DNA from: a virus
Reading direction: 5' to 3' (one strand)
DNA length: 64,000 nucleotides
IMG/VR virus record: IMGVR_UViG_3300026512_000003
Coordinates: 64,001-128,000 of that record
Program-made: the position numbers and the translations under genes
Notes under the pieces: model-generated
Told to the model about the DNA's origin: nothing
Seen by the model: the letters and a program-made list of their open reading frames with translations, nothing else
Database searches by the model: none
Shown: piece after piece, positions 8,076-60,612 of the stretch
Numbering within the stretch: the first letter of the stretch is position 1
Layout: every line of letters begins with the position of its first letter

Positions 8076-9086
8076 TTACATTATCCCTAACATCTTGTCA
8101 TAATTATCTACCTTGCCTGCCACAGAAGCACCTGTTATCCCAGCACCTCCATAAAACATAGCTCTATCTAGACCATTTAATTTTTTTTTAGGGCCTTTTT
8201 TGAAAAGAGACAAAGTGGAATGTCCTATATCCTGTGCTTTGTTTATAGATTTTATTGTACCTTTTGTTGCTGAAAGTGCCCCTTTTCCAAGAGCTCCCAC
8301 TCCAGTCAACCCCCAATTTAATATTTTGGAAGTAAGCATAGCGATAGCTTCTTTGTCTGAACCTTCTTTTAATAGCATATCTAACTGATGAACAGAAGAG
8401 AGGGTGTCGACCATATTTGAATGCTTTTCCCCAGAGAATTCATCTGTAGCAACTTTCGTAAGAACTTGCTCATTCATATTTAATCTGTTCACTATTAAAG
8501 GAAGAGAGTCCACTAGGTCATGTTCCATTGCAACTTTTACTAAGCCTCTAACCTCTTCTTCTGAATTAAGACTGTTTGCTATTTTGTCACAAGCAAAATC
8601 AAGAGTTTCTTTTGCTTTAAATATTAAGCTATTCTCTCTTTTTTTGTTTGTCTCAGCCTGTATGTCTTGAGCTGAAGCTATCTTCGTCATAAGAAATTTG
8701 TCGTCAGCTTCTTTTAAGAGTGTCGTGCTTGAAGATGTTTTTGCTTTAAATCTTTTAGAAGACTGTAATACGAACATATCATCAGTAATAATAAATTCAG
8801 GACGAACACCACTCCCTACATCATCAGAGGCCGTCTTAGTTAAAACAGACGCTGTCTTCTGTATGGAGCTATTAGCAGCACTGTCTGTTGACGACGGAGT
8901 TATAACATCAAAAGAAATATCACCATCTGTGGATTTATCAGCAATTCTACTTAAAAAGAATTGCTTATTTACCTCTCTAGCTAAACTAACCTGATGTGTT
9001 TCATCTAAGGCTGCGGCTTCTTTGCTAAAATCAGTATACGGATCCTCAGAGGACGCTATTTGTATTGCCAATTGTTTAATGTCCAT
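8076..9086 (-). CDS. KxA-motif precursor protein with cationic glycine-rich C-terminal cargo (putative internal head/ejection protein)
   Basis: Nine K-x-A motifs in residues 1-247, then a basic amphipathic Gly-rich tail. Confidence 0.6.
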   Translation of the reverse strand: MDIKQLAIQIASSEDPYTDFSKEAAALDETHQVSLAREVNKQFFLSRIADKSTDGDISFDVITPSSTDSAANSSIQKTASVLTKTASDDVGSGVRPEFIITDDMFVLQSSKRFKAKTSSSTTLLKEADDKFLMTKIASAQDIQAETNKKRENSLIFKAKETLDFACDKIANSLNSEEEVRGLVKVAMEHDLVDSLPLIVNRLNMNEQVLTKVATDEFSGEKHSNMVDTLSSVHQLDMLLKEGSDKEAIAMLTSKILNWGLTGVGALGKGALSATKGTIKSINKAQDIGHSTLSLFKKGPKKKLNGLDRAMFYGGAGITGASVAGKVDNYDKMLGIM

Positions 9087-9101
9087 TCTCTCATCCTTGT
9101 T

Positions 9102-9144
9102 GTGTATTCTAGTGTTGCCACCGAAGTGACAACTAAGAATACAC
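9102..9144 (-). terminator. Strong intergenic hairpin with cUUCGg tetraloop (terminator or processing/stability element)
   Basis: Minus strand GTGTATTCT-TAG-TTGTCAC TTCG GTGGCAAC-ACT-AGAATACAC right after a stop codon; no U-tract. Confidence 0.55.
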
Positions 9145-10202
9145 TAGTTGCGCGCTCTATTGTATCCGTATGCAGCTCCAGCTCCAGCTCCAGCCAAAGC
9201 AGTTCCTGCTAATCCAGCAGCAGCTAAGTATTTGTTCTTTTTGCTAAGATTTCTTAGAGACCCTCTAAGAGATCCTCCTAATTCTTTTGCAGCTTCCGTC
9301 TTACCTTTACTGAGCCCTTCTGTATTACCTATACTACGCCAATGTTTGATAGTATCTTTTCTAGCAGCAGCGGCTGGACTAGTTTTTGCCCTCTTCGCTG
9401 CTTTTTGTTGAAGCTTGTATGCTTCCCTTTGTTCTGGTGTCATTCTGCGTTGAAAGTTTGTCTCACCATTCAGCTTTCGAGCTTTTTGAACTCTAGGAGT
9501 AACTGGTTTCTTTTTCCCAGGAACACTATACTCAGTATTTTTATAAAGCTCACGATTTGCGGCTATTCTTGCTTCTGTATTAGACATATCATTCAAGACA
9601 CCAGCTTCTTTGTCATACGCAATCATCGCATCTTCAGGGTGAACAACTTCTAAATCCATAAGGAAATCTTGAACTTGAGCAAGTTTGTCCTCCATATCAG
9701 CATCAAGATCACTATACTCACTCGCAATTTTTTCACCTTCTTCAGGAGACCCAATATTGTTTAGATCAGTAATTAAAGTAATTGCTGAAACAGGATCAAT
9801 GCCGTTTTCTTCTAAAAACGCATGAGCTTCTGCAACTTTATCTAAGTCTCTGTCAAGGGCAATCTCTTCCATTTGTCCATTTAGAGCTTCAGCCACTTTT
9901 TCATAGTCTTCAACTTCTAAGCCATAAGAAGCTAATTCAGCCATCGCATCTTCATCAGAATAGTTATCACTCGCCATCTTTTCAAAAACATTCACTGCAC
10001 CTAGCAGTGCACTTGGCTCAATTTCTTCTGCAATCTTAATAAGGTTCTCACCTGTGAAAAGATTTCCTTGTGTAAGGTTGTGATGAACGATTAAATCATT
10101 CACAGTCACTCCGCTGTCTTCAGCTACTTTTACCAGTCCGTCAAAATCAGCTGCGGCATCTGAAGCCATAGCAAAACTTTCAACTCTATCATAAAATGTC
10201 AT
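9144..10202 (-). CDS. KxA-motif scaffold-like precursor: acidic N-terminal 200 aa plus basic C-terminal cargo with terminal hydrophobic Gly/Ala helix
   Basis: All 8 lysines in residues 1-200 are in K-x-A; C-terminus LAAAGLAGTALAGAGAGAAYGY. Confidence 0.65.
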   Translation of the reverse strand: MTFYDRVESFAMASDAAADFDGLVKVAEDSGVTVNDLIVHHNLTQGNLFTGENLIKIAEEIEPSALLGAVNVFEKMASDNYSDEDAMAELASYGLEVEDYEKVAEALNGQMEEIALDRDLDKVAEAHAFLEENGIDPVSAITLITDLNNIGSPEEGEKIASEYSDLDADMEDKLAQVQDFLMDLEVVHPEDAMIAYDKEAGVLNDMSNTEARIAANRELYKNTEYSVPGKKKPVTPRVQKARKLNGETNFQRRMTPEQREAYKLQQKAAKRAKTSPAAAARKDTIKHWRSIGNTEGLSKGKTEAAKELGGSLRGSLRNLSKKNKYLAAAGLAGTALAGAGAGAAYGYNRARN

Positions 10203-19700: not shown

Positions 19701-21491
19701 TTAGTCTTCCAAATTCTCTAATCTATCATAAATGTCATCAAAGTTGTTTTTCTGACTATTTGTTAGTGCTACTATTTTATCTCTAACGACCTCTTGACCT
19801 TCTATGAGAGCCTCTACACTATCCATAATATCAGTAATTAATGCTGATGCTTTTGTTTGCATCACAGAAACATCATTATCTCTATATATAACTTCTAAAG
19901 GAACAAGTAACGGATCTGTTTCATCAGTAATTTCTACAAAATCAATTTCAAAAGCAGAACAGTTTCTAATATATAATGCAATACGACAGTCACTGTAAGC
20001 TGCTTCGGATAAGTTCATATGTGATCCTTGCATTTTTTCAGAATAACCACCAAATAATTTTCTACAAGAAGTAACTTTACCTATTGGACTAAAACTAACA
20101 GTCATCTCATATTTTTCCTCTCCATTTGTAATAAGAGAACCTTCTAATGGAATATGTCCACTAGTCATCCCTGTTCCTTTTATGTCGTATATGAAATCTT
20201 GCCCACTTTTGTCTTTTGAAAGGATTGTTCCTTTCATTACTTCGGGAATCGCTTCAAAAAGTGTATCATGATTATTACTGCCTACAATAATTGGCCAAGA
20301 ATGATCAGAAATATCACTAAATGTTTGCATTGACTCAGGAAGTGATCCTTTTTGGATACCAAACATTATATTGAATCCACCTCTCTCTTGAAGCATTGGG
20401 TAGTTTTCAAAAGCATCATTCCAACTGTTTGCTGTTTTTTTACTACCAGATGTACCTGTCAACACATCATTAACACTACTAGGAACATTACCTATTTCAA
20501 CAAAACTAAGATTGTTTACAATCCCGATAGACCAACCATTTCCAGCTACCACATCTAAGAAAAAATTTCCATTCTCCCCAGTAATAGTATTAGTTCCATC
20601 CACATCTTTGCCCCAGGTAATAATCTCACCATTCTCTGTGATAGCACTTATTATTTGTTCTCCACAAGATACTTTTTTCGCAGTAATATTAGGCTTGTCA
20701 TCAACTTGCCCAAACTCATTATCTCCAAAAATATCAAAAGTACCATCTGTATGTAGAAGTGCAAGATTGTTGCCTTGCCCTGTAATTTGCACTGCTTTAT
20801 TGTCATCCCCTATATCTAAACCAATCACTGATACATTTCCTGAGTTAAAAATAGCTGCATAGAAATCTTCACCTGCACAAATATCAACTATCATATTCTC
20901 ATCTACCGTAGTCCATTCTGTTGGGAGAGCCAAATCTCCATCTCTATCGGAACCATAAAAAGTAACTGTGCCATTTTGTCTGAGTGCAATAGTAAAACCT
21001 GCGCCAGTTGCAATTTGAGAAATAGTTTCTAAGTCTTCAAGGTCTAGCTCAGCATTATCATTTGAACCTTGAAATCCAAATAGAGAACCTGATTTCACAA
21101 TAGTGTGAGTAGAAGAAGTGTCTACCCCATAAAAAGTTCTTCTTTGATATGAGTCTACATTCTCTCGGCGATCTTCTTTTTGACACCCATCAGACAAATC
21201 ATTTCCTGACCAGAGGTTATCACTATTGGGAGCCTTAGTAAGGAAAGCAAAATTGTCTCCAAATGAACTTCCAAAAGTACCAGAACGAACAAAAGGAGAA
21301 AAAGGCTGTGCTTTAAACACAATTCTTAATGTTTTGTTTGCTGCTGATAAGTCGAAAGATTCTCGAGAAACAATACCAATCAAATAATCATCTGTTTCTT
21401 CTCTTTCTATGAATAAAGAGCCATCTGTTCTTGCTTGCACTGCATTGCTATTTGAAACAAAGTCAGAACTAGTTAATACGGTAGTCGCCAT
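19701..21491 (-). CDS. RCC1/BLIP-II repeat beta-propeller protein with C-terminal coiled coil (putative fibre/receptor-binding)
   Basis: Repeats QIATGAGFTIALRQNGTVTFYG, DICAGEDFYAAIFNSGNV, KVSCGEQIISAITENGEIITWG. Confidence 0.75.
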   Translation of the reverse strand: MATTVLTSSDFVSNSNAVQARTDGSLFIEREETDDYLIGIVSRESFDLSAANKTLRIVFKAQPFSPFVRSGTFGSSFGDNFAFLTKAPNSDNLWSGNDLSDGCQKEDRRENVDSYQRRTFYGVDTSSTHTIVKSGSLFGFQGSNDNAELDLEDLETISQIATGAGFTIALRQNGTVTFYGSDRDGDLALPTEWTTVDENMIVDICAGEDFYAAIFNSGNVSVIGLDIGDDNKAVQITGQGNNLALLHTDGTFDIFGDNEFGQVDDKPNITAKKVSCGEQIISAITENGEIITWGKDVDGTNTITGENGNFFLDVVAGNGWSIGIVNNLSFVEIGNVPSSVNDVLTGTSGSKKTANSWNDAFENYPMLQERGGFNIMFGIQKGSLPESMQTFSDISDHSWPIIVGSNNHDTLFEAIPEVMKGTILSKDKSGQDFIYDIKGTGMTSGHIPLEGSLITNGEEKYEMTVSFSPIGKVTSCRKLFGGYSEKMQGSHMNLSEAAYSDCRIALYIRNCSAFEIDFVEITDETDPLLVPLEVIYRDNDVSVMQTKASALITDIMDSVEALIEGQEVVRDKIVALTNSQKNNFDDIYDRLENLED

Positions 21492-21493
21492 AA

Positions 21494-21862
21494 TTATGCT
21501 CCTATCTCATGTCTAAAACGATTATCTAGTTGCTCAAAAATAGCATCTCCTAAAGTAGTTGCAATTGTAGATATGTAAGCTAAATCAGAATTACCAGCTT
21601 CTTCAGCAATCTTAATGATGTCTTCAGGTGTAGTAGCCTGTTCCATTTGAGAAGCAACTTTTTCTAGAGTTTCGCTTAAATCAAGTGGCGCACCTATCTC
21701 TTGTTCTATTTGAGTCGCAACATCTAGTGTTTCCTCAGCTTCTTTTACTAAAGCAGTTCCTTGTGCAAGTGAGCTTAAGCTAAGATCTTTAGCACTCGCT
21801 GTTTTTTGTAACGACTGTTCTTCGCTTACTGATTGAATTAGATTACCTATATTTACTTCCAT
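21494..21862 (-). CDS. Small acidic KxA-motif protein (scaffold/core-like)
   Basis: LQKTA, LVKEA, LEKVA, IIKIA: 4 of 5 lysines. Confidence 0.6.
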   Translation of the reverse strand: MEVNIGNLIQSVSEEQSLQKTASAKDLSLSSLAQGTALVKEAEETLDVATQIEQEIGAPLDLSETLEKVASQMEQATTPEDIIKIAEEAGNSDLAYISTIATTLGDAIFEQLDNRFRHEIGA

Positions 21863-21875
21863 TTTGTATTCCTTT

Positions 21876-22406
21876 TTAGTTTGGTTTAGAGTAGATACCT
21901 TGAATAATTAGTGTTATTTTACCTAAAATCTGGCAAGAACTCAAGACAGATCCCTCACCTTCAAGTTTTTCTGTTTGACCCCAAAGTACAAGATCTGCTC
22001 CAGATATATTAGGATGTTCTGTCTTTAAGGCACCCATTGCGGATGTTAAAAGTGTCTCAACAACGATATTGCTTATTTTTTCTGTCTCTAAATAAGAGTT
22101 CCCTACACAAGTGAATTGAATAGGGTAGTCTATAACATGCATAGTGTTGTAAATATTTGAATTTGTATTGACATCGAATATTTTTTGTTCATTCATCATA
22201 AGAGATTTTGGTACATGAGACAATTGTCCTCTTTCTATAATAACAAGAGGTGCCCTCTGTGGATTTTTTTTAAACGAATCTCTCACCACTATTTCTGTAT
22301 CCGTATTTCCAAGATTAGCAAACTCTTCAGACAAAAACTTTTTATAAATAGAAAGCATATCTCTGAATAGTAAAAGCCTATCTCCAGTATCTCCTCTAAC
22401 AAACAC
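21876..22406 (-). CDS. Putative tail completion/neck protein
   Basis: PLVIIERG...YPIQFTCVGNSYLETEKISNIV pattern resembles tail-terminator folds. Confidence 0.35.
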   Translation of the reverse strand: MFVRGDTGDRLLLFRDMLSIYKKFLSEEFANLGNTDTEIVVRDSFKKNPQRAPLVIIERGQLSHVPKSLMMNEQKIFDVNTNSNIYNTMHVIDYPIQFTCVGNSYLETEKISNIVVETLLTSAMGALKTEHPNISGADLVLWGQTEKLEGEGSVLSSCQILGKITLIIQGIYSKPN

Positions 22407-22409
22407 AAC

Positions 22410-22865
22410 TTACTCTTTTATATGATACTTATCAGACAAAGCTTTTTTGTATGCTTTTGCCCTATCTGTATCTTTGCCTACAAGGTTTTCTCTTGCTCCT
22501 TGCTGTTTATTATATTCACTTCGCTGTTTTTTTAAAGATAACACTCCTGAAGCAAGAGCTCCAAGACCTCCAATAATCCCTTTTTTTCTTGTTGCAGAAA
22601 AAATTTTTCCAGAGTCTTTGTTAATTAAAGTATTACCCATTAGGTAAGCAAGCGATCCACCTGTAGCAATATCTTTTGTCGTCTCTTCTGAAGAAGAGGG
22701 AGCTGAACGCTTACCTTTTACATCTGCTAATAATTCGAGTTGTGCAAGTCTCTTATTTTCTAAAGAACCCTGGTCATCTGCTATTTTGTCCCCAGTTACA
22801 GGATCAAAATTTTCAAAAGCAAGTAGTCCTATTTTTTTATTTTTATTTTTCTTATATTTCTGCAT
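22410..22865 (-). CDS. Basic glycine-zipper protein (putative ejection protein)
   Basis: IATGGSLAYLMG and GIIGGLGALASGVL segments; one GDKIA site. Confidence 0.5.
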   Translation of the reverse strand: MQKYKKNKNKKIGLLAFENFDPVTGDKIADDQGSLENKRLAQLELLADVKGKRSAPSSSEETTKDIATGGSLAYLMGNTLINKDSGKIFSATRKKGIIGGLGALASGVLSLKKQRSEYNKQQGARENLVGKDTDRAKAYKKALSDKYHIKE

Positions 22866-22866
22866 C

Positions 22867-23472
22867 TTATATTTCCCTAATCGAAGTGTCGTATGACTTT
22901 TGTGCTGAACCTAGCAAGCCATAAGTATTTTGAAAAGCGTTATTGCTTCTCCCTCCTCTTTGTTGAATCTCTGCAAGGTTTTTGCTAGTTGCTATATCAA
23001 CTCCACCAACAGCATGTGCTGTTGTCAAAAAAGTTGTAGCAAGTTCAGGATCTTTAGCTGCTCTAGGAGCGATAGTGTGAGCACTGTTCAGCCAATTTCT
23101 TAGTTTGCTATCTTTTACAGTTCTCAATGAAGGATTTGTTTGCTTTGCATATGCAATTAAGCCTGGTACTTTTTTCCTAAATTTCATATCATTATATTCA
23201 TCTGTCAAAGCTTCTGCACCAAGCCCAACTCCTGTTAGGGCTACAGCCATTGGTACAGCTTCAGCTAAAGCTGTTCCAATATGACCAAAACTAAAAGAAG
23301 CTTCTTTTTGTATTTCGTCTGAAATTGTAGGACTGTCTTTAAGCATTTTCAGCAAAGTATTCGCTTGTGCAATTTTTACAAAAGTTGTTTCAGAATCTTC
23401 TGAGAATCCATTTTTTTCAACTTCTTCCGCTAATTTTATTAATATCTTTTCCATATTATTAATGTCCTTCAT
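22867..23472 (-). CDS. KxA-motif precursor with hydrophobic helix after last KEA
   Basis: LIKLA, FVKIA, IQKEA then SFSFGHIGTALAEAVPMAVALTGVGLGA. Confidence 0.6.
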   Translation of the reverse strand: MKDINNMEKILIKLAEEVEKNGFSEDSETTFVKIAQANTLLKMLKDSPTISDEIQKEASFSFGHIGTALAEAVPMAVALTGVGLGAEALTDEYNDMKFRKKVPGLIAYAKQTNPSLRTVKDSKLRNWLNSAHTIAPRAAKDPELATTFLTTAHAVGGVDIATSKNLAEIQQRGGRSNNAFQNTYGLLGSAQKSYDTSIREI

Positions 23473-23785
23473 CTGTACTTATTGTTTTTTCTGTTATCTC
23501 TAATAAACGGTTGTGTTCATTTATTAGTAATAATAGCTCTTTTATTCTTTCTTTTCTCTGAATACACTTAGCTGATATTTTTTCAAGATCGTTTTTTGAA
23601 ATCACAAATTTGTTAATATCCATCTTTTTTATTGTGATATTAATATCGGTAAGTGCATCTGATTCCGATACATAAATTTTCTCTCCAACAGGAATTAATG
23701 ATTGCTGATGAACCACAGTACTACATCCAGCGAATAACAGACTAAAGAGAAAGAGTAATGCTTTGTTCTTTTTGCGCATGTTCAA
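23459..23785 (-). CDS. Outer-membrane spanin-like lipoprotein (o-spanin)
   Basis: Signal peptide with lipobox LFAG-C; overlaps 3' end of upstream TM/coiled-coil gene. Confidence 0.65.
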   Translation of the reverse strand: MNMRKKNKALLFLFSLLFAGCSTVVHQQSLIPVGEKIYVSESDALTDINITIKKMDINKFVISKNDLEKISAKCIQRKERIKELLLLINEHNRLLEITEKTISTDEGH

Positions 23786-24041
23786 TCTCCTGTATTGCTT
23801 TTTTAATTTCTTTACTCGACGAGATTTTATTTTGAAGTATTTTTTTTGCAGTTTCTCTATGTAATCCAGCTCTTTTTTCTTGAATGAGCATTTTCTTTGT
23901 AGAGGCTTTCACATTTTCTTTCAAAATATTATTTTCTTGAGACAAAGCGTCAATCTTTGACTGTTTAATGTTACTACTTATTTTAAAATAAGCGGTAACT
24001 ATACTTAAAACAGCCATAATGGCAATTGTTATATCAGACAT
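23742..24041 (-). CDS. Inner-membrane spanin-like protein (i-spanin)
   Basis: Single N-terminal TM helix plus coiled coil, between holin and lipoprotein. Confidence 0.6.
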   Translation of the reverse strand: MSDITIAIMAVLSIVTAYFKISSNIKQSKIDALSQENNILKENVKASTKKMLIQEKRAGLHRETAKKILQNKISSSKEIKKAIQEIEHAQKEQSITLSL

Positions 24042-24285
24042 CTTCAGTTACTTTTTCTTGAAGAGATGTTGTAGTTACTGTTCGCAAATAAGCACCTATT
24101 CCTGCGATAAGTATCATAAATACACCAAAACTTCCTTGAGAACCAAATAAAGATTCTATTTTTCCTGAATACAATTGAATTGCTCCTACTAATGCAAGTC
24201 CAATATTAAACAACATTGTTTTACTTTTCACAACTATCTTTGTAGTCTTTACTAATTTTTTCTTTGCTTTATTAAAAAAGTTCAT
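24034..24285 (-). CDS. Putative holin
   Basis: 83 aa, basic N-terminus, two TM helices, KSKT..FN and LRTVTT motifs. Confidence 0.6.
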   Translation of the reverse strand: MNFFNKAKKKLVKTTKIVVKSKTMLFNIGLALVGAIQLYSGKIESLFGSQGSFGVFMILIAGIGAYLRTVTTTSLQEKVTEDV

Positions 24286-24303
24286 AGAATTATCCTTTAT
24301 TTG

Positions 24304-26046
24304 CTATAGTCTTCCAAGTAGAAGCTGGGCTCTATCGGAATGAATGTTTGATAAATTTTCATTATCACCTGAAGTTACATTTTGAGAGAGACCTTTTTTG
24401 ATTCCTCTGTAATTAATTTGTTGCCATATACTTTTCCCATTCATAGGGCGTTGTTCGTATGTTTTAAAAATTGTTTCATAATTCGGCTTGGAATGAGAGA
24501 CAGAGATTTCTTTTACACCGGCTTTTCTCAAATTAGAAATAGTGTCTTTTGTGATTTTATGGCCAATACTGTAATGTAGTTTTGGTTCAGCAAGAAACTT
24601 TTTAACTATTTGTCTGTCTCCCACTTTCATATTTACAATATTACTTCCTTTTAAATCACCAATGGATTCATCATAAGTCATCAAAGAATGCTCTCCATTA
24701 AGACCTTTTGGCTTAATAAGGTTTAGATACCCTCTACTAATAACTTCTAAATTTCTCTTATCTATTACGCCTCCGGTAGACTTTTGTAAAGCATTTGATA
24801 AGTAATGACGAGCTTCTACTACCCCTCTGTGTAAAAGGATATCTTTAGTGGAAGCTATTCCGTTTGTTAGGATATCTCCCTCTTCCACTGTATGTCCAAC
24901 TGAAACCTTTGGAGAAATTCCTGGAATTACATAATGATCTTTCCCAGCAATCGTCATGTTATATCCACCCGTAGGGAGCTTGGAGATTTTCGTTACAGTT
25001 CCTTGAGTGGTAGCTACAGTTGCTTTTCCTTTAAATTTCTCGGTAGAATTTAATAGAATTTTAGTTGCTTCAAAACCACTTGGAATATGGGAAGATTCTT
25101 TTCCTGCAACATTATGTTTAGCACTTAATACTAACTGTGTTGCTTTTTCAGCTAATGACTGAGAAGATTCTATTCCTATATTATGCCCAGTGTTATGAAA
25201 TTGCCCTGTTGAATTTTTTCCAAAACATAAAGCACAAACCCCATGTTTCGCTCGGCATGTTTCAACTGTTCTGGCAACGACATTCTTAACTCCCTTTGAT
25301 TTAAGAGATTTCAAATATTGTTCATCTAAGACTTTGTTTGTCTTAGCTTCAACTCTTCCTATTAAGTCACGATCATTTATAGAAAACAATTTTCCATTAG
25401 TTGTCCCACAATCATGCATAACAACTTTTAAATCTTCAGTGTTAGCAATTAGTACTTTTCCCATTGCCCCTGGTTCTGAAGTTGAAACAGCTGCTTGTAC
25501 TGCAGCATATCTAGCTTGTCCCCCTGAAGCATATTGTTCATGGGCACTTAGTCCATTTGATAAACTATTTTTTATCAAAAAAGGATATGGTTCGGAATTC
25601 ATATCAACAGCAAAACCTACAGCTCCTGTAACCCTTGTTGCAGTAGAAGGATTTCCTCTAGCTTTAGATAAAGCTTGAATTACAATACCATTGTTTTTGT
25701 TTTTAAGTGTCATACCTTGCAACTTGTTAAATGTTGAAATTAGATGTCTCTTTGCTTCCTTCTCTGGAAGTCTCGATATAATCTTGTCTTGCACATCTAA
25801 AAAGTTTTTGATTTCCTTGTGATTGCTTAGGTGCAAATCATTAATACCCATGTTGTGACCACTCAGATAAGCTAACTCTTCCCCAAGATCTCCAATTTTG
25901 TGTATGTTCTCAGAATATTGCAAAGGATATTTTTTTGCAAACGATTGAAGTCTTGCATTCACTTTTGGCTTGGTTAAAGGAGCATCACTGTTTTTAAAAT
26001 GAAGCTCCGTAGGTAGATATTTGTTTATCTCTCGAATGGAAGTCAT
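24304..26046 (-). CDS. RNA polymerase beta' subunit, C-terminal half (RpoC2-like split subunit)
   Basis: SKARG funnel, bridge-helix equivalent, DCGT, Zn site C..VCALC, trigger loop GIESSQSLAEKATQLVLSAKH, DKRNLEVI; no NADFDGD. Confidence 0.9.
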   Translation of the reverse strand: MTSIREINKYLPTELHFKNSDAPLTKPKVNARLQSFAKKYPLQYSENIHKIGDLGEELAYLSGHNMGINDLHLSNHKEIKNFLDVQDKIISRLPEKEAKRHLISTFNKLQGMTLKNKNNGIVIQALSKARGNPSTATRVTGAVGFAVDMNSEPYPFLIKNSLSNGLSAHEQYASGGQARYAAVQAAVSTSEPGAMGKVLIANTEDLKVVMHDCGTTNGKLFSINDRDLIGRVEAKTNKVLDEQYLKSLKSKGVKNVVARTVETCRAKHGVCALCFGKNSTGQFHNTGHNIGIESSQSLAEKATQLVLSAKHNVAGKESSHIPSGFEATKILLNSTEKFKGKATVATTQGTVTKISKLPTGGYNMTIAGKDHYVIPGISPKVSVGHTVEEGDILTNGIASTKDILLHRGVVEARHYLSNALQKSTGGVIDKRNLEVISRGYLNLIKPKGLNGEHSLMTYDESIGDLKGSNIVNMKVGDRQIVKKFLAEPKLHYSIGHKITKDTISNLRKAGVKEISVSHSKPNYETIFKTYEQRPMNGKSIWQQINYRGIKKGLSQNVTSGDNENLSNIHSDRAQLLLGRL

Positions 26047-26057
26047 AAGGCTATCTC

Positions 26058-26579
26058 TTAATCTCCGTCATCTTCAGACAGATTATCTATTTTGGCTTGA
26101 ATTGCTGCAACCAAATCAGTAAGACCCTGTTTTGTTGACATAATTATATCTCTAGGACTTTTCTCAATATGATTAAGAAGAATCTTCTGATCTGTAATAA
26201 GAGGCGAACTTGTATCAGTAGCAATTTGCTGTGCAAGTGCAGGTAACGCATAATCTTTAAAGAACACACTATTTGGATTGTATGATATATGCAATTTACT
26301 TGTCAAATCTGGTGAACAATTGAATACATATCCACCTTGAATATTTTTCTTTAAAGAAATTGTAACATCAGGTGCATCAGTATTTGTTGTGATGAGATCT
26401 TCAATTGTTGTGATAGCAGTAGCTATTTCTGTAACTGAAGAAGATAATTGCTGAACAGTTCCACTTAAGCATTGCAAATAGCATAAGTTTAATTGAACAT
26501 CATAAATATTGTTCGGTTCCCAGAGAGTGTAGTTACATTTTTGTAACTCAGCCTGTATTTTTTCCGAAGTTGTTGCCAT
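26058..26579 (-). CDS. Hypothetical protein
   Basis: 173 aa, RBS CAGGAG, own promoter. Confidence 0.55.
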   Translation of the reverse strand: MATTSEKIQAELQKCNYTLWEPNNIYDVQLNLCYLQCLSGTVQQLSSSVTEIATAITTIEDLITTNTDAPDVTISLKKNIQGGYVFNCSPDLTSKLHISYNPNSVFFKDYALPALAQQIATDTSSPLITDQKILLNHIEKSPRDIIMSTKQGLTDLVAAIQAKIDNLSEDDGD

Positions 26580-26620: not shown

Positions 26621-26636
26621 ATTATATCAAAAAAAC
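26621..26636 (-). promoter_or_regulatory. Extended -10 promoter with upstream T-tract
   Basis: TTTTTTTGATATAAT upstream of the 173-aa gene and RNAP gene. Confidence 0.55.
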
Positions 26637-28020: not shown

Positions 28021-29274
28021 TTACCTATACACGATTTGTTCGTATCCTTCTGGCGAAATACCAATAAGTGCACTCGCATAACCTTTATCTATCATATCCA
28101 TATACTTTGGATTTGGCTCTCCTCTTGACATAGAAAGCCATCCAGTATTCCCTGTTGTTGTCGAGTTTCCATCAGGGAAAACAATCTTATACTCAGGATA
28201 TTCCCTCTGTCTGAGATTTTTTCTTTGAGCCTTTCTTAGTTCTTTGTCAGCCGCTGTTTTTAAAAGATAAGTTCTCGTGCTTAACTTACTTAGTGTTTCA
28301 TTTGAGTACATTTCTAAAGATGCTTCTTTAAGAAAAGGGCACTCTTGAGCAGAGAGAGCTTGATCTAATAACATAGTAATAATAGTATCTTTTCTCGCTT
28401 CTGATTTAAGTTTAGGAAATTCGGAATGATGAATACTACTTGCAAGAAACATTGCCTCTTCAGGGAGAAGTTGAATATTATGAGATCTAACAAGCTTTAT
28501 TATTGTTTTTTTAGGAAATCTATCTCTAAAAGTAGATAATTCCTTAGGACTAACAGCTTCAGGCATAGTGTCTATTGCTTCAATCCTTTTAATAAGCTCC
28601 GCTGTTTTGCTTTCCAATAGATTTTCAGCACTAGCAACCTTCTGAAACAAAGCATGCCCTTGAGCATCAGCCGGTCTTCTTACTATAGATATGTCAAAAA
28701 AATTCATAGGGGGCTTATTTATTGCATAGACTATTTGTCCATTTGGCATTTGCTGGTGCATCATAAACTTTAAATGGTCGCATCTGTTTGCTATAGACCC
28801 CTTAGTTATGGCTCCACAAAAAGAACAAATTTCTTGGGGTACTCGCACGCCCATGGACACCTTATATCGCATTCCACTTTTAATCCCTTCGTATATGTCA
28901 GGCGCTTTGTTTTTTGAAATTTCCAAAATGAGTTCTACTCTATGCATATGAGAGTTATAAATAGCTTTAAGTACCTTACCTAGTGTTTTACTTGGGTCTT
29001 TATTGTCATGTTGCATAAAGATACCAGCAGTTTCAAATGTTTTATAATATTCTTGAAGGTCTTTTTCATAAAAGAAATCACCATTATTGTTTTCTCCGTA
29101 GTAATCACCTGCACCCATTGCAATAACAAGCAAATAGGCATGGTCTTTTTTCTGTTTTATTTCCTCAAGGGGGTTGCTTTCTGCAGTTTTTTGAAGAGGA
29201 CAGTTTCCCCCAAAACAACTAGCATGTCCTATTTCTATATTCTCTATTGTGAAGTCTATTCTTTTTTCTAACAT
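28021..29274 (-). CDS. Prohead (maturation) protease, HK97/assemblin-type, with Zn-finger insert
   Basis: NNNGDFF, His89 (MQHD), Ser140 (VSMG), CSFC..C.H, FFDISIVRRPAD matching the EvSlV..PA motif. Confidence 0.75.
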   Translation of the reverse strand: MLEKRIDFTIENIEIGHASCFGGNCPLQKTAESNPLEEIKQKKDHAYLLVIAMGAGDYYGENNNGDFFYEKDLQEYYKTFETAGIFMQHDNKDPSKTLGKVLKAIYNSHMHRVELILEISKNKAPDIYEGIKSGMRYKVSMGVRVPQEICSFCGAITKGSIANRCDHLKFMMHQQMPNGQIVYAINKPPMNFFDISIVRRPADAQGHALFQKVASAENLLESKTAELIKRIEAIDTMPEAVSPKELSTFRDRFPKKTIIKLVRSHNIQLLPEEAMFLASSIHHSEFPKLKSEARKDTIITMLLDQALSAQECPFLKEASLEMYSNETLSKLSTRTYLLKTAADKELRKAQRKNLRQREYPEYKIVFPDGNSTTTGNTGWLSMSRGEPNPKYMDMIDKGYASALIGISPEGYEQIVYR

Positions 29275-37892: not shown

Positions 37893-38123
37893 TACAACCC
37901 ACAAGCAAAAAACCACCACTTATCTATCAAAAAACCAACCAATAAATCTTGGGAAAAATCAACATTTTTGTGGCATATATAGATGTAAGAGATATACCTT
38001 ACACAAGAATTTCTATTGTATAGAGATTGTACTGTGAGGTAAAAAGTGTTCTTTTTTAGAGGACGAAAATGGTCGTTGAGCGACAAAGGTTTCATAGCCT
38101 AAAACTTTTTGAAGGAGTAAATT

Positions 38124-38246
38124 ATGAGCGCACAAGAAATTAACCAAAGAGTAGAAGAAATTAAAAAATCTGCTGAGGCGAAAAACCTCAGAATATCAAA
38201 AGCGCAAATCAAAGCGCAACTGGTATTACAAACAGCTGGGATTTAA
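38124..38246 (+). CDS. 40-aa early peptide (not in ORF track)
   Basis: GAAGGAG RBS; MSAQEINQRVEEIKKSAEAKNLRISKAQIKAQLVLQTAGI. Confidence 0.6.
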   Translation: MSAQEINQRVEEIKKSAEAKNLRISKAQIKAQLVLQTAGI

Positions 38247-38381
38247 AACCCCAGCTTCAAACAAAAGCATAACATTAAAAATAAGTTTTTTACGAAAACC
38301 TTATTTGTGATGTTATATCAAAGAAGCATAGTACTAAGGCTGTACTATTTACTACCCCGTCTAACGGGAAGAAAGGTCATC

Positions 38382-38570
38382 ATGAAAAAGTTTAATTCTA
38401 AACGAGTGTATGCTATGGCGGATAACTGCAATGTTATCCAATACTACGCATTTGGACGAGTAGATCGACTATATGCTGAGATAACCCTAGGTCTCAAAAG
38501 CATAGGAGATCGATTGATTGGTAAAGATAATAAGTACGAAGCAAAAAGAAAATTAGCTGAAGAGCTCTAA
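38382..38570 (+). CDS. Small early protein (62 aa)
   Basis: AGAAAGG RBS before ATG 38382. Confidence 0.5.
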   Translation: MKKFNSKRVYAMADNCNVIQYYAFGRVDRLYAEITLGLKSIGDRLIGKDNKYEAKRKLAEEL

Positions 38571-38647
38571 TACTTCGCCAAGCTGGGCGTAAAATGGAGC
38601 AACAAAGAGGTCTTTTCTCCTAAGAGTTAAGGTGTCCCCTCTTTGAA

Positions 38648-38735
38648 AAAAGCATACATTTAAGAACATCCTCGCTTAGTAATCTAGACGATGTGACTCT
38701 CAGACGAGAGGCGATGTTCTTAAATGTGTGTTTTT
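38648..38735 (+). other. Long intergenic stem-loop (23-bp stem), RNase III site-like or ncRNA
   Basis: AAAAGCATACATTTAAGAACATC pairs with GATGTTCTTAAATGTGTGTTTTT with two G-U pairs. Confidence 0.6.
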
Positions 38736-38807
38736 AGGCCGCATTAGTTTGCTACAAATCCACAAGAGTGGTCGCAGTCATGCGTTCCAAATATTAAGGA
38801 GGAAGAA

Positions 38808-39197
38808 ATGAAAGTAGAATTAAAAGAAACTAAAAATAGTTTTGGGGAAATGGTAAACCATATTTTTATAGATGGCGTAAAAAAAGCATCTCTTGTAATA
38901 GAAAAAGATGCTGTTGAGGTTGCTTTTTTAAGCGTAAACAACACAGAAATTGTGGATCGTTTTGAAATAGACAATCCAAACAGGAAGAATACAAGAGGGT
39001 ACATGGATACCCTTATTGGTATTGTGGCTGCGAATAGCAGCAATCTCGGTGAAAAACACGCCGAGTACATAAGAAATAACCGAGAAACAATGTTATCAAA
39101 TGATAACAGATGTTTCAGGATGGTTAAAAAAGAGGGGAGTGGGGAAGACTATGAAAAAGAGTACACTGTACTCTTGACGGGAGACTGTAATGACTGA
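38808..39197 (+). CDS. Early hypothetical protein
   Basis: 129 aa, AAGGAGG RBS. Confidence 0.65.
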   Translation: MKVELKETKNSFGEMVNHIFIDGVKKASLVIEKDAVEVAFLSVNNTEIVDRFEIDNPNRKNTRGYMDTLIGIVAANSSNLGEKHAEYIRNNRETMLSNDNRCFRMVKKEGSGEDYEKEYTVLLTGDCND

Positions 39198-59686: not shown

Positions 59687-60400
59687 ATGTTTAATAAAGT
59701 TATAATATTAGGAAATCTTACTAGAGATATTGAGTTGAAGTATTTACAATCAGGTACAGCAGTAGCAGGCTGCGGAATTGCATCTTCTCGAAAATGGAAA
59801 AGTCAAGACGGACAACAAAGAGAAGAGACAATGTTTGTCGACTTGTCTTTTTTTGGGAGAACAGCAGAAGTTGCGAATCAATATTTACACAAAGGTAGTA
59901 AATGTCTGATAGAAGGTAGATTAAAATTAGATCAATGGACAGATCAAAATGGACAAAAAAGATCAAAGCATACCGTACAGGTAGAAGAAATGAAGATGTT
60001 AGACTCTAGGCCTCAGCAAAGTGGACAGCAACAAGGAGGATATCAACAACAAGGAGGATATCAGCAACAAGGCAACTATCAGCAACAAGGCAACTATCAG
60101 CAACAAGGCAACTATCAGCAACAAGGCAACTATCAGCAGCAACCACAAGCATACCAACCTCCACCAACGCAATATGTAGATGCAAATGGTAATCCAATAA
60201 CTGAAGAGCAATATAAGCAGAATATGCAACAGCAAGCTCCACAACAGCAAGCTCCACAACAGCAAGCTCCACAACAGCAAGCTCCACAACAGCAAGATCC
60301 ACAACAGCAAGCTCCACAACAGCAAGCTCCACAACAGCAAGATCCAGTTGTAGAAAATATCCCTGTTATAGATGTTGATGAGGACGAAATCCCTTTTTAA
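59687..60400 (+). CDS. ssb: Single-stranded DNA-binding protein with Q-rich linker
   Basis: MFNKVIILGNLTRD, EGRLKLDQW, acidic tail DEDEIPF. Confidence 0.95.
   Translation: MFNKVIILGNLTRDIELKYLQSGTAVAGCGIASSRKWKSQDGQQREETMFVDLSFFGRTAEVANQYLHKGSKCLIEGRLKLDQWTDQNGQKRSKHTVQVEEMKMLDSRPQQSGQQQGGYQQQGGYQQQGNYQQQGNYQQQGNYQQQGNYQQQPQAYQPPPTQYVDANGNPITEEQYKQNMQQQAPQQQAPQQQAPQQQAPQQQDPQQQAPQQQAPQQQDPVVENIPVIDVDEDEIPF
60026..60346 (+). repeat. Coding tandem repeats in SSB linker
   Basis: 18-bp (QQQG[G/N]Y) units and 18-bp (QQQ[A/D]P-type) units. Confidence 0.85.
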
Positions 60401-60429
60401 TATTAGGTAACCATAAAGAAGGAGTAAAA

Positions 60430-60612
60430 ATGGAATATTGTACATCCCCTTTGAAAAAAAAGGGGCTATGTGATGATTGTAAAAGAGATATTAAAATTTG
60501 GGAAATGAATAATGAAACAAAAATTCTTCCAGATCCAATCGTCACAGTGGTAAAAAATTTAAAAACTAAAAAAAATGTTTGGAAATGCGAGAAGAAAATA
60601 AAAAAGGATTAG
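60430..60612 (+). CDS. Small Cys-rich protein
   Basis: C...CDDC...C; AAGGAG RBS. Confidence 0.5.
   Translation: MEYCTSPLKKKGLCDDCKRDIKIWEMNNETKILPDPIVTVVKNLKTKKNVWKCEKKIKKD

Follow-up and report, generated by a model that had tools for sequence, protein, structure and literature searches.

An Arash-type phage RNA polymerase in two chains and its stand-alone beta' C-terminal subunit

The beta' C-terminal chain and the surrounding genes

The window analysed here is a stretch of 64,000 nucleotides, bases 64001-128000 of a viral contig of 165,427 bp (33% GC, about 88% complete). Positions are those of the window unless the full contig is named. An open reading frame (ORF) at 24304..26046 on the minus strand encodes a chain of 580 aa with rim helices, F-loop, bridge helix, second zinc site, trigger loop, jaw and rear clamp, and its end coincides with the last conserved beta' block. 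The ORF matched Pfam Rpb1_5 (E 2.7e-11), solved bacterial beta' structures (E 7e-30) and TIGR02386 (E 1e-41, residues 8-447), and its predicted structure (pLDDT 83) matched beta' folds with a TM of about 0.6. The DxDGD catalytic motif was not found in it. These results agree with a preliminary description, which had called it a stand-alone beta' C-terminal subunit without NADFDGD. The ORF is a true beta' C-terminal half. It belongs to an Arash-type phage RNA polymerase of two chains and is a typical member of its family. Two further traits named in that description were also confirmed. The chain is very basic (pI 9.64), and it is more cellular than phiKZ-type subunits, since AR9 gp154 matched it with an E of only 7e-7 and its tree stem was 0.42 versus 2.19. 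In the alignment, profile position 21 corresponds to Synechococcus RpoC2 residue 12 and position 12 to E. coli beta' residue 584. The chain starts near E. coli beta' residue 573, about 10 residues ahead of the equivalent of the RpoC2 start, so that the proposed RpoC2-like boundary was nearly right, but the stretch quoted as the start begins at residue 24, not residue 1.

The gene has a head protease block on one side and, on the other, a probable lysis cassette. Directly upstream, after a gap of 11 nt, is a gene of 173 aa with no assigned function (26058..26579, minus strand), which is syntenic in close relatives. The head-maturation protease (28021..29274, minus strand), a homolog of Arash gp222 (E 3e-13), belongs to the same minus-strand block. 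Directly downstream, after 18 nt, three small genes (23459..24285, minus strand) encode a holin-like protein judged from hydrophobicity, a protein of 99 aa and an Rz-like spanin with a weak match (E 2.6e-4). An extended -10 promoter-like site with a T run, TG and TATAAT (26621..26635, minus strand) is placed 50 nt ahead of the 173-aa gene and is probably a late promoter for host sigma70. A like site was present there or ahead of the beta' C-terminal gene in only 2 of 8 related loci. Elsewhere in the window, a chaperonin-like gene (180-1601; Cpn60_TCP1, E 1e-22) stands among structural genes. GC skew flips at 38095-38808, where two intergenic stretches hold several hairpins; this region may be a genome end, an origin or an RNA element.

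The bridge helix (25438..25536, minus strand; residues 171-203) and the trigger helix and loop (25114..25179, minus strand; residues 290-311) include the stretches quoted in the preliminary description, which are present at residues 171-199 and 296-311. Conservation was scored in about 140 intein-free cores of roughly 30% identity. R179 and G193 of the bridge helix are invariant (100%), K197 is 99-100% and T189 about 70% conserved, and we take these residues to be the counterparts of E. coli R780, G794, R798 and T790, respectively. Between the two motifs lies the second zinc site (25225..25410, minus strand), with C213, C264, C271 and C274 each at least 96% conserved, which encloses a small beta/alpha module (residues 216-262). 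Q304 and H311 of the trigger loop are kept in 99% of the cores. R933 is replaced by S or N, and F935 by K in 94% of two-chain forms, while F survives in about half of the forms with an N-terminal extension, most of which are one-chain. With the second zinc site, the bridge helix and a trigger loop bearing Gln and His, the 580-aa chain has the features of a two-barrel RNA polymerase.

The bridge helix and trigger loop had been described as diverged. Gln and His are indeed kept and Arg lost, and the divergence is family-wide. Inteins persist in essential motifs, and insertions of more than 100 aa, which is intein-sized, were found in 60 of 148 representatives. The trigger loop took 40 of them, the bridge helix 25 and another site 1. 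Thus 65 of the 66 fall in these two motifs, and intein ends and Hint or LAGLIDADG domains were recognised in them. The trigger-loop ending LSAKH is identical in AR9 gp154, and the KH loop also occurs in Machias, RP13 and two other phages. The AR9 core enzyme is active (PMC7598289). In E. coli R933A, catalysis is only 4-fold slower, and Pol II N1082S is viable (PMC3325174). Because of the conservation across the family, the AR9-like ending and the clustering of inteins, the trigger loop is, to judge from sequence, a working variant common to phage enzymes and not a product of decay, and for the same reasons the two-chain enzyme is very probably catalytically active.

A second copy of the 216-262 module (24481..24645, minus strand; residues about 468-522) is inserted where bacteria have none. 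The two copies were related by HHalign (98.5%, E 1.8e-15), and 128 of 131 rows matched at E<0.01 compared with 0 of 277 control slices. This family-specific duplication is common to one-chain and two-chain forms and absent from bacteria. The Arash particle protein gp7 (L033:7425-8105) carries a stand-alone second-zinc module (E 5e-10 to residues 205-275 of the 580-aa chain), and no homolog of gp7 was found in the 165,427-bp contig.

The partner chain, the sigma gene and related polymerases

The preliminary description regarded the subunit as part of a phage multisubunit RNA polymerase, isolated from its partners within the 64 kb, and proposed a search of the rest of the genome for beta and N-terminal beta' genes. 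When the whole genome was scanned for motifs, a single ORF had both catalytic signatures. It encodes a chain of 1411 aa at 20278-24513 of the full contig (plus strand; locus L001:6278-10513), in which a whole beta is fused to the N-terminal half of beta', and it ends 59 aa past the first catalytic Asp. The DxDxD triad of the beta' barrel and the two lysines of the beta barrel are both intact on this chain. The 1411-aa and 580-aa chains cover positions 162-484 and 558-1046 of the TIGR02386 profile, respectively, and do not overlap. The isolation of the subunit therefore holds inside the 64-kb window but not in the genome, as the partner lies outside the window and ends 39.5 kb before its start. 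The absence of partner subunits, which would have spoken against the original reading, is thereby excluded. A sigma-like gene of 206 aa, also outside the window (full contig 59834-60454, plus strand; locus L005:7834-8454), was recognised by comparison with Arash gp10 and by Pfam and belongs to the sigma70 family, although a TIGR02937 profile search missed it. With a catalytic partner and a sigma gene in the same genome, the assignment to a phage multisubunit polymerase is borne out.

The contig holds one whole beta and a single polymerase set. Neither alpha nor omega was found in the contig, and this absence taken alone is weak because the contig is about 88% complete. All 4 complete related genomes have the partner, as do 8 of 11 related records. 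Sigma was found in 12 of 13 records. A full alpha was found in none of 13, a set that includes the 4 complete IMG/VR genomes, Arash and D69. An ORF of 146 aa with an alpha C-terminal domain only was seen in two related phages (G006:121148-121366 and G009:3375-3593). Residues 760-1411 of the partner and 1-330 of the 580-aa chain were used for a complex prediction, which scored 0.75 against 0.00 for the best control, with at least 91% of contacts agreeing between runs and a partner pLDDT of at least 79. A mark of 0.75 was reached by 58 of 80 solved pairs and 2 of 110 mismatched pairs, and the predicted complex may pass owing to its likeness to solved polymerases. The two chains are homologous to beta and beta', complementary, conserved, and found together in related genomes.

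Among cultured phages, Salmonella phage Arash and Vibrio phages D69, D148 and D181 are the nearest relatives, and they have the same layout. About 40 metagenomic proteins are 47-62% identical to the 580-aa chain, and gene order is conserved where it was checked. Viral contigs yielded nothing to a single-sequence query; an alignment query worked. At 50% identity, 728 clusters scored E<1e-30, though bacterial beta' may be among them. The best 150 representatives appear to be of the Arash-type family, comprising stand-alone beta' C-terminal chains and one-chain forms. The one-chain relatives, of which there are at least 30, hold beta and both halves of beta' in about 2000-2100 aa, or more with inteins. 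In them the C-terminal half begins about 55-100 aa past the catalytic Asp, near the point where two-chain partners end, which is mostly 90-93 aa past the first Asp. One clade of beta' C-terminal chains has an N-terminal extension of 220-260 aa (P0097, P0177 and P0180), with a NUDIX domain in P0097, and P0057 and its kin have a C-terminal extension of about 450 aa with no assigned function.

In trees of both chains, the family forms one clade (97-99) that includes Arash and D69 and is apart from bacteria and from the YerA41/Carin-5 group. The tree of the C-terminal chain, with long branches and an unresolved base, also separates it from AR9/Machias and TM30/RP13. These trees exclude most near-copies and the rows in which intein excision failed; the outgroups were few, and bacterial rpoB-rpoC contigs deposited as phages (L014, L027 and L028) served among them. 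Descent from cyanobacterial RpoC2 or a Helicobacter-type fused RpoBC was rejected because these profiles scored 63 and 57 bits versus 142 for RpoC; neither kind was in the trees.

Probable late synthesis and packaging, and the position of the split

Our data make it probable that the two chains form an Arash-type RNA polymerase that is made late, packaged and used early. The 1411-aa chain would supply beta and the catalytic barrel, and the 580-aa chain would close the secondary channel and give the bridge helix, trigger loop, jaw and rear clamp. The phage sigma would direct initiation, with alpha and omega unused. Both chains would be made late by the host enzyme from extended -10 promoters, packed into the head and delivered together with the DNA, and the delivered enzyme would transcribe a block of about 50 kb of small and replication genes, which lacks promoters of this kind.

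Extended -10 sites 25-58 nt ahead of starts numbered 11, where 1.1 were expected; 10 of the 11 are outside the small-gene block and one is within it. Two relatives gave 16 versus 1.3 and 12 versus 1.4, the genomes being related and not independent. The sites are nearly all outside the block of small co-oriented genes and head the operons of both the 580-aa chain and its partner. A plain sigma70 scan was at chance level (80 versus 75), and only sites positioned ahead of starts were enriched. As both polymerase genes are among late genes behind host-type extended -10 promoters, they are probably synthesised late. The extended -10 form matches the Campylobacter promoter consensus (PMC3824568). 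The best matches of the phage SSB are Campylobacterota proteins (60-76% identical), which suggests that Campylobacterota are the likely host group; a comparison of the primase gave no host signal. Since no phage-specific early promoter was found, with k-mer counts and EM giving nothing shared, early transcription by the phage enzyme is something that we infer. TATAAG was not enriched in the contig or in relatives G001 and G003. In intergenic DNA of the small-gene block (window 37800-64000 and beyond; contig 101-152 kb), 13 copies of TGT[AC]AAA are on the coding strand and none is on the opposite one, a bias that is absent from G001 and G003.

Virion packaging, which the preliminary description had proposed, is made probable by particle proteomics of Arash and by the late-operon context. 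In Arash particles gp206 was the most detected protein (128 peptides) and gp216 the fifth (40), and sigma gp10 was listed (24) (PMC10585845). Spectra per residue were 2.3, 2.0 and 2.0 for gp206, gp216 and gp10, compared with 1.5 for the portal and 0.7-1.0 for two helicases. Unique peptides per 100 aa numbered 6.6-10 for the three proteins, as for portal and capsid, and <1 for the two helicases. These values suggest that gp206, gp216 and gp10 are about equimolar in the particle. The terminase and a second sigma are absent from the particle list; the preparation held 116 proteins including reductase, ligase and primase, and carry-over is allowed for by its authors (PMC10585845). The second sigma, gp196 (L007:10441-11478), has no clear homolog in the contig. 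By analogy with Arash, the closest cultured system with such evidence although only 27% identical to the window chain, it is quite probable that the enzyme is packaged in the particle and has an early role. Several head-block proteins and the protease carry hydrophobic-x-K-x-A repeats (window 8076-10202, 21494-21862, 22867-23472 and 28021-29274), and no K-x-A series was found in the 580-aa chain, the partner or sigma. K-x-A sites were rejected as a packaging signal. Basic pI was rejected too, because Arash gp216 has a pI of 6.8.

The same two-chain enzyme might instead remain unpackaged and be synthesised after infection, reading middle or late genes with its own sigma, perhaps from extended -10 promoters. 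It is the only polymerase in the genome, a sigma70-family sigma could read TATAAT-type boxes, the Arash proteome is impure, and the missing early promoter is also compatible with this explanation. However, both genes are in structural or lysis operons outside the replication block, Arash gp206 heads the particle list and the three Arash proteins appear near-equal in amount, and the small-gene block is almost devoid of host-type extended -10 start sites. We therefore regard an unpackaged enzyme as unlikely.

Independence from alpha is, from comparison with AR9 and related genomes, highly probable. The phage core could borrow host alpha, and omega, after entry to form a hybrid enzyme, as bacterial cores need alpha (PMC7618050) and the two chains are far more bacterial-like than phiKZ subunits. 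This is improbable, because the split and a local deletion in the window phage are at the beta'-alpha contact known from AR9 (PMC9209446), whose core is active without alpha (PMC7598289). The deletion leaves about 60 aa from the catalytic Asp to the start of the C-terminal chain, compared with about 112 in Acinetobacter, and the 580-aa chain stops short of the bacterial C-terminal tail.

The preliminary description explained the split by passage through the tail, and this part of it was not supported. Virion polymerases are believed to be unfolded when they go through the tail (PMC7598289), and selection for shorter chains that fit the tail tube would agree with the mixture-model trees, in which one-chain forms are basal and the split may be derived. 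FastTree, however, placed the one-chain forms in one clade, and their monophyly was not rejected by the AU test (p 0.43); taken together, the trees fit either order of fusion and split. The same seam is used by both virion and non-virion enzymes of jumbo phages, including the non-virion ones of AR9 and phiKZ, and by cyanobacteria (PMC7598289, PMC9209446), and also in YerA41, RP13 and EP_H11. Chain length is no barrier, since the partner has 1411 aa, two-chain partners reach 2797 aa with inteins and one-chain relatives have about 2050 aa; the gene of one such relative follows a portal gene, as Arash gp206 does. Selection by the tail tube is improbable. In AR9 the seam lies at the beta'-alpha contact (PMC9209446), and we consider it most likely a place where enzymes without alpha tolerate a break. 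A split at this natural seam would be tolerated and would be no adaptation to the tail, and the seam would have been opened repeatedly by alpha-less phage enzymes and cyanobacteria. That the 580-aa chain is a catalytically irrelevant decoy or modulator of host polymerase is very improbable: the trigger-loop Arg and Phe and several bridge-helix residues differ from bacteria, but an intact catalytic partner co-occurs, key residues are invariant in about 140 sequences of roughly 30% identity, and the same motif works in AR9 and is where inteins cluster.

Relation to known polymerases

Arash (OQ632216; PMC10585845), with gp206, gp216 and sigma gp10, and D69, D148 and D181 share the two-chain layout and seam of the window phage. 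The Arash type also has the KH trigger loop, the duplicated module and the sigma homolog, and Arash is homologous in portal, capsid, protease and terminase as well. The chains of Arash and the Vibrio phages are 27-31% identical to those of the window phage. Unlike Arash, where the polymerase genes are about 5 kb apart on the same strand, the window phage has them 64 kb apart on opposite strands; its partner has about 30 aa less past the barrel, its two chains are strongly basic, and a second sigma was not found. The Arash paper annotates gp206 as 'beta' and does not mention the fusion (PMC10585845).

The phiKZ/AR9 polymerases (AR9 gp154, phiKZ gp74) resemble that of the window phage in having a stand-alone beta' C-terminal chain, a split after the barrel and no alpha or omega, and AR9 gp154 shares the trigger-loop ending. 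They differ in that beta is split too, into 2-3 chains, which makes 4-5 chains in all. They also have two paralogous sets and an insertion domain in the trigger loop, and a sigma gene is not recognisable in them, whereas the window phage has a whole beta fused to the N-terminal half of beta', one set and no insertion. Grouping with AR9/Machias was not recovered in the tree, where they form a separate long branch. The mReC RNA polymerases (PMC7481178) and those of YerA41, Carin-5, RHph_TM30 and RP13 are also cell-like polymerases in tailed phages of 150-200 kb; YerA41 and RP13 also split beta', and RP13 has the KH loop. In these phages beta is separate from beta', and the cultured ones fall outside the family clade (97-99). 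The mReC definition (Weinheimer and Aylward 2020) asks for beta and beta' as separate chains of at least 800 aa, with the catalytic motif in beta', which differs from the layout found here, and the 580-aa chain, lacking that motif, would fail such a screen. The cyanobacterial RpoC2 profile TIGR02388 gave 63 bits against a cut-off of 467, compared with 142 bits for ordinary RpoC. RpoC2 carries a large trigger-loop insertion that the window chain lacks, and RpoC1 runs about 100 aa past the end of the phage partner. The common seam, with starts within about 10 residues of each other, is therefore probably convergent and not due to descent. A bacterial core polymerase has an encoded alpha dimer and omega, which the window phage lacks; its layout is that of the Arash type, in which beta is fused to the N-terminal half of beta' and the C-terminal half is separate or fused.

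Alpha-less and virion-delivered multisubunit polymerases, and the same split site, are already known. A literature search, with subscription journals mostly outside its scope, found no paper describing the Arash-type architecture. In the literature searched, the fusion of beta to the N-terminal half of beta' with its one-chain sister form, the breadth of the family and its true sigma partner were not described. New here are the trigger-loop match with AR9, the map of intein positions, the duplicated module and the arguments against tail passage as the cause of the split. As a tentative wider view, the Arash type may represent an undescribed large phage family with a minimal holoenzyme of one or two core chains and sigma, which would be ejected and refold without alpha. 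It might have arisen from a one-chain form by a single split at the alpha seam, and in two-chain forms the K two places further on in the trigger loop might replace the lost Arg. An enzyme of three genes, with 25-30% identity to bacterial polymerase and a cultured carrier, is a simple system in which to study the purpose of alpha, the refolding of a polymerase after ejection and the action of a trigger loop that has lost its arginine.
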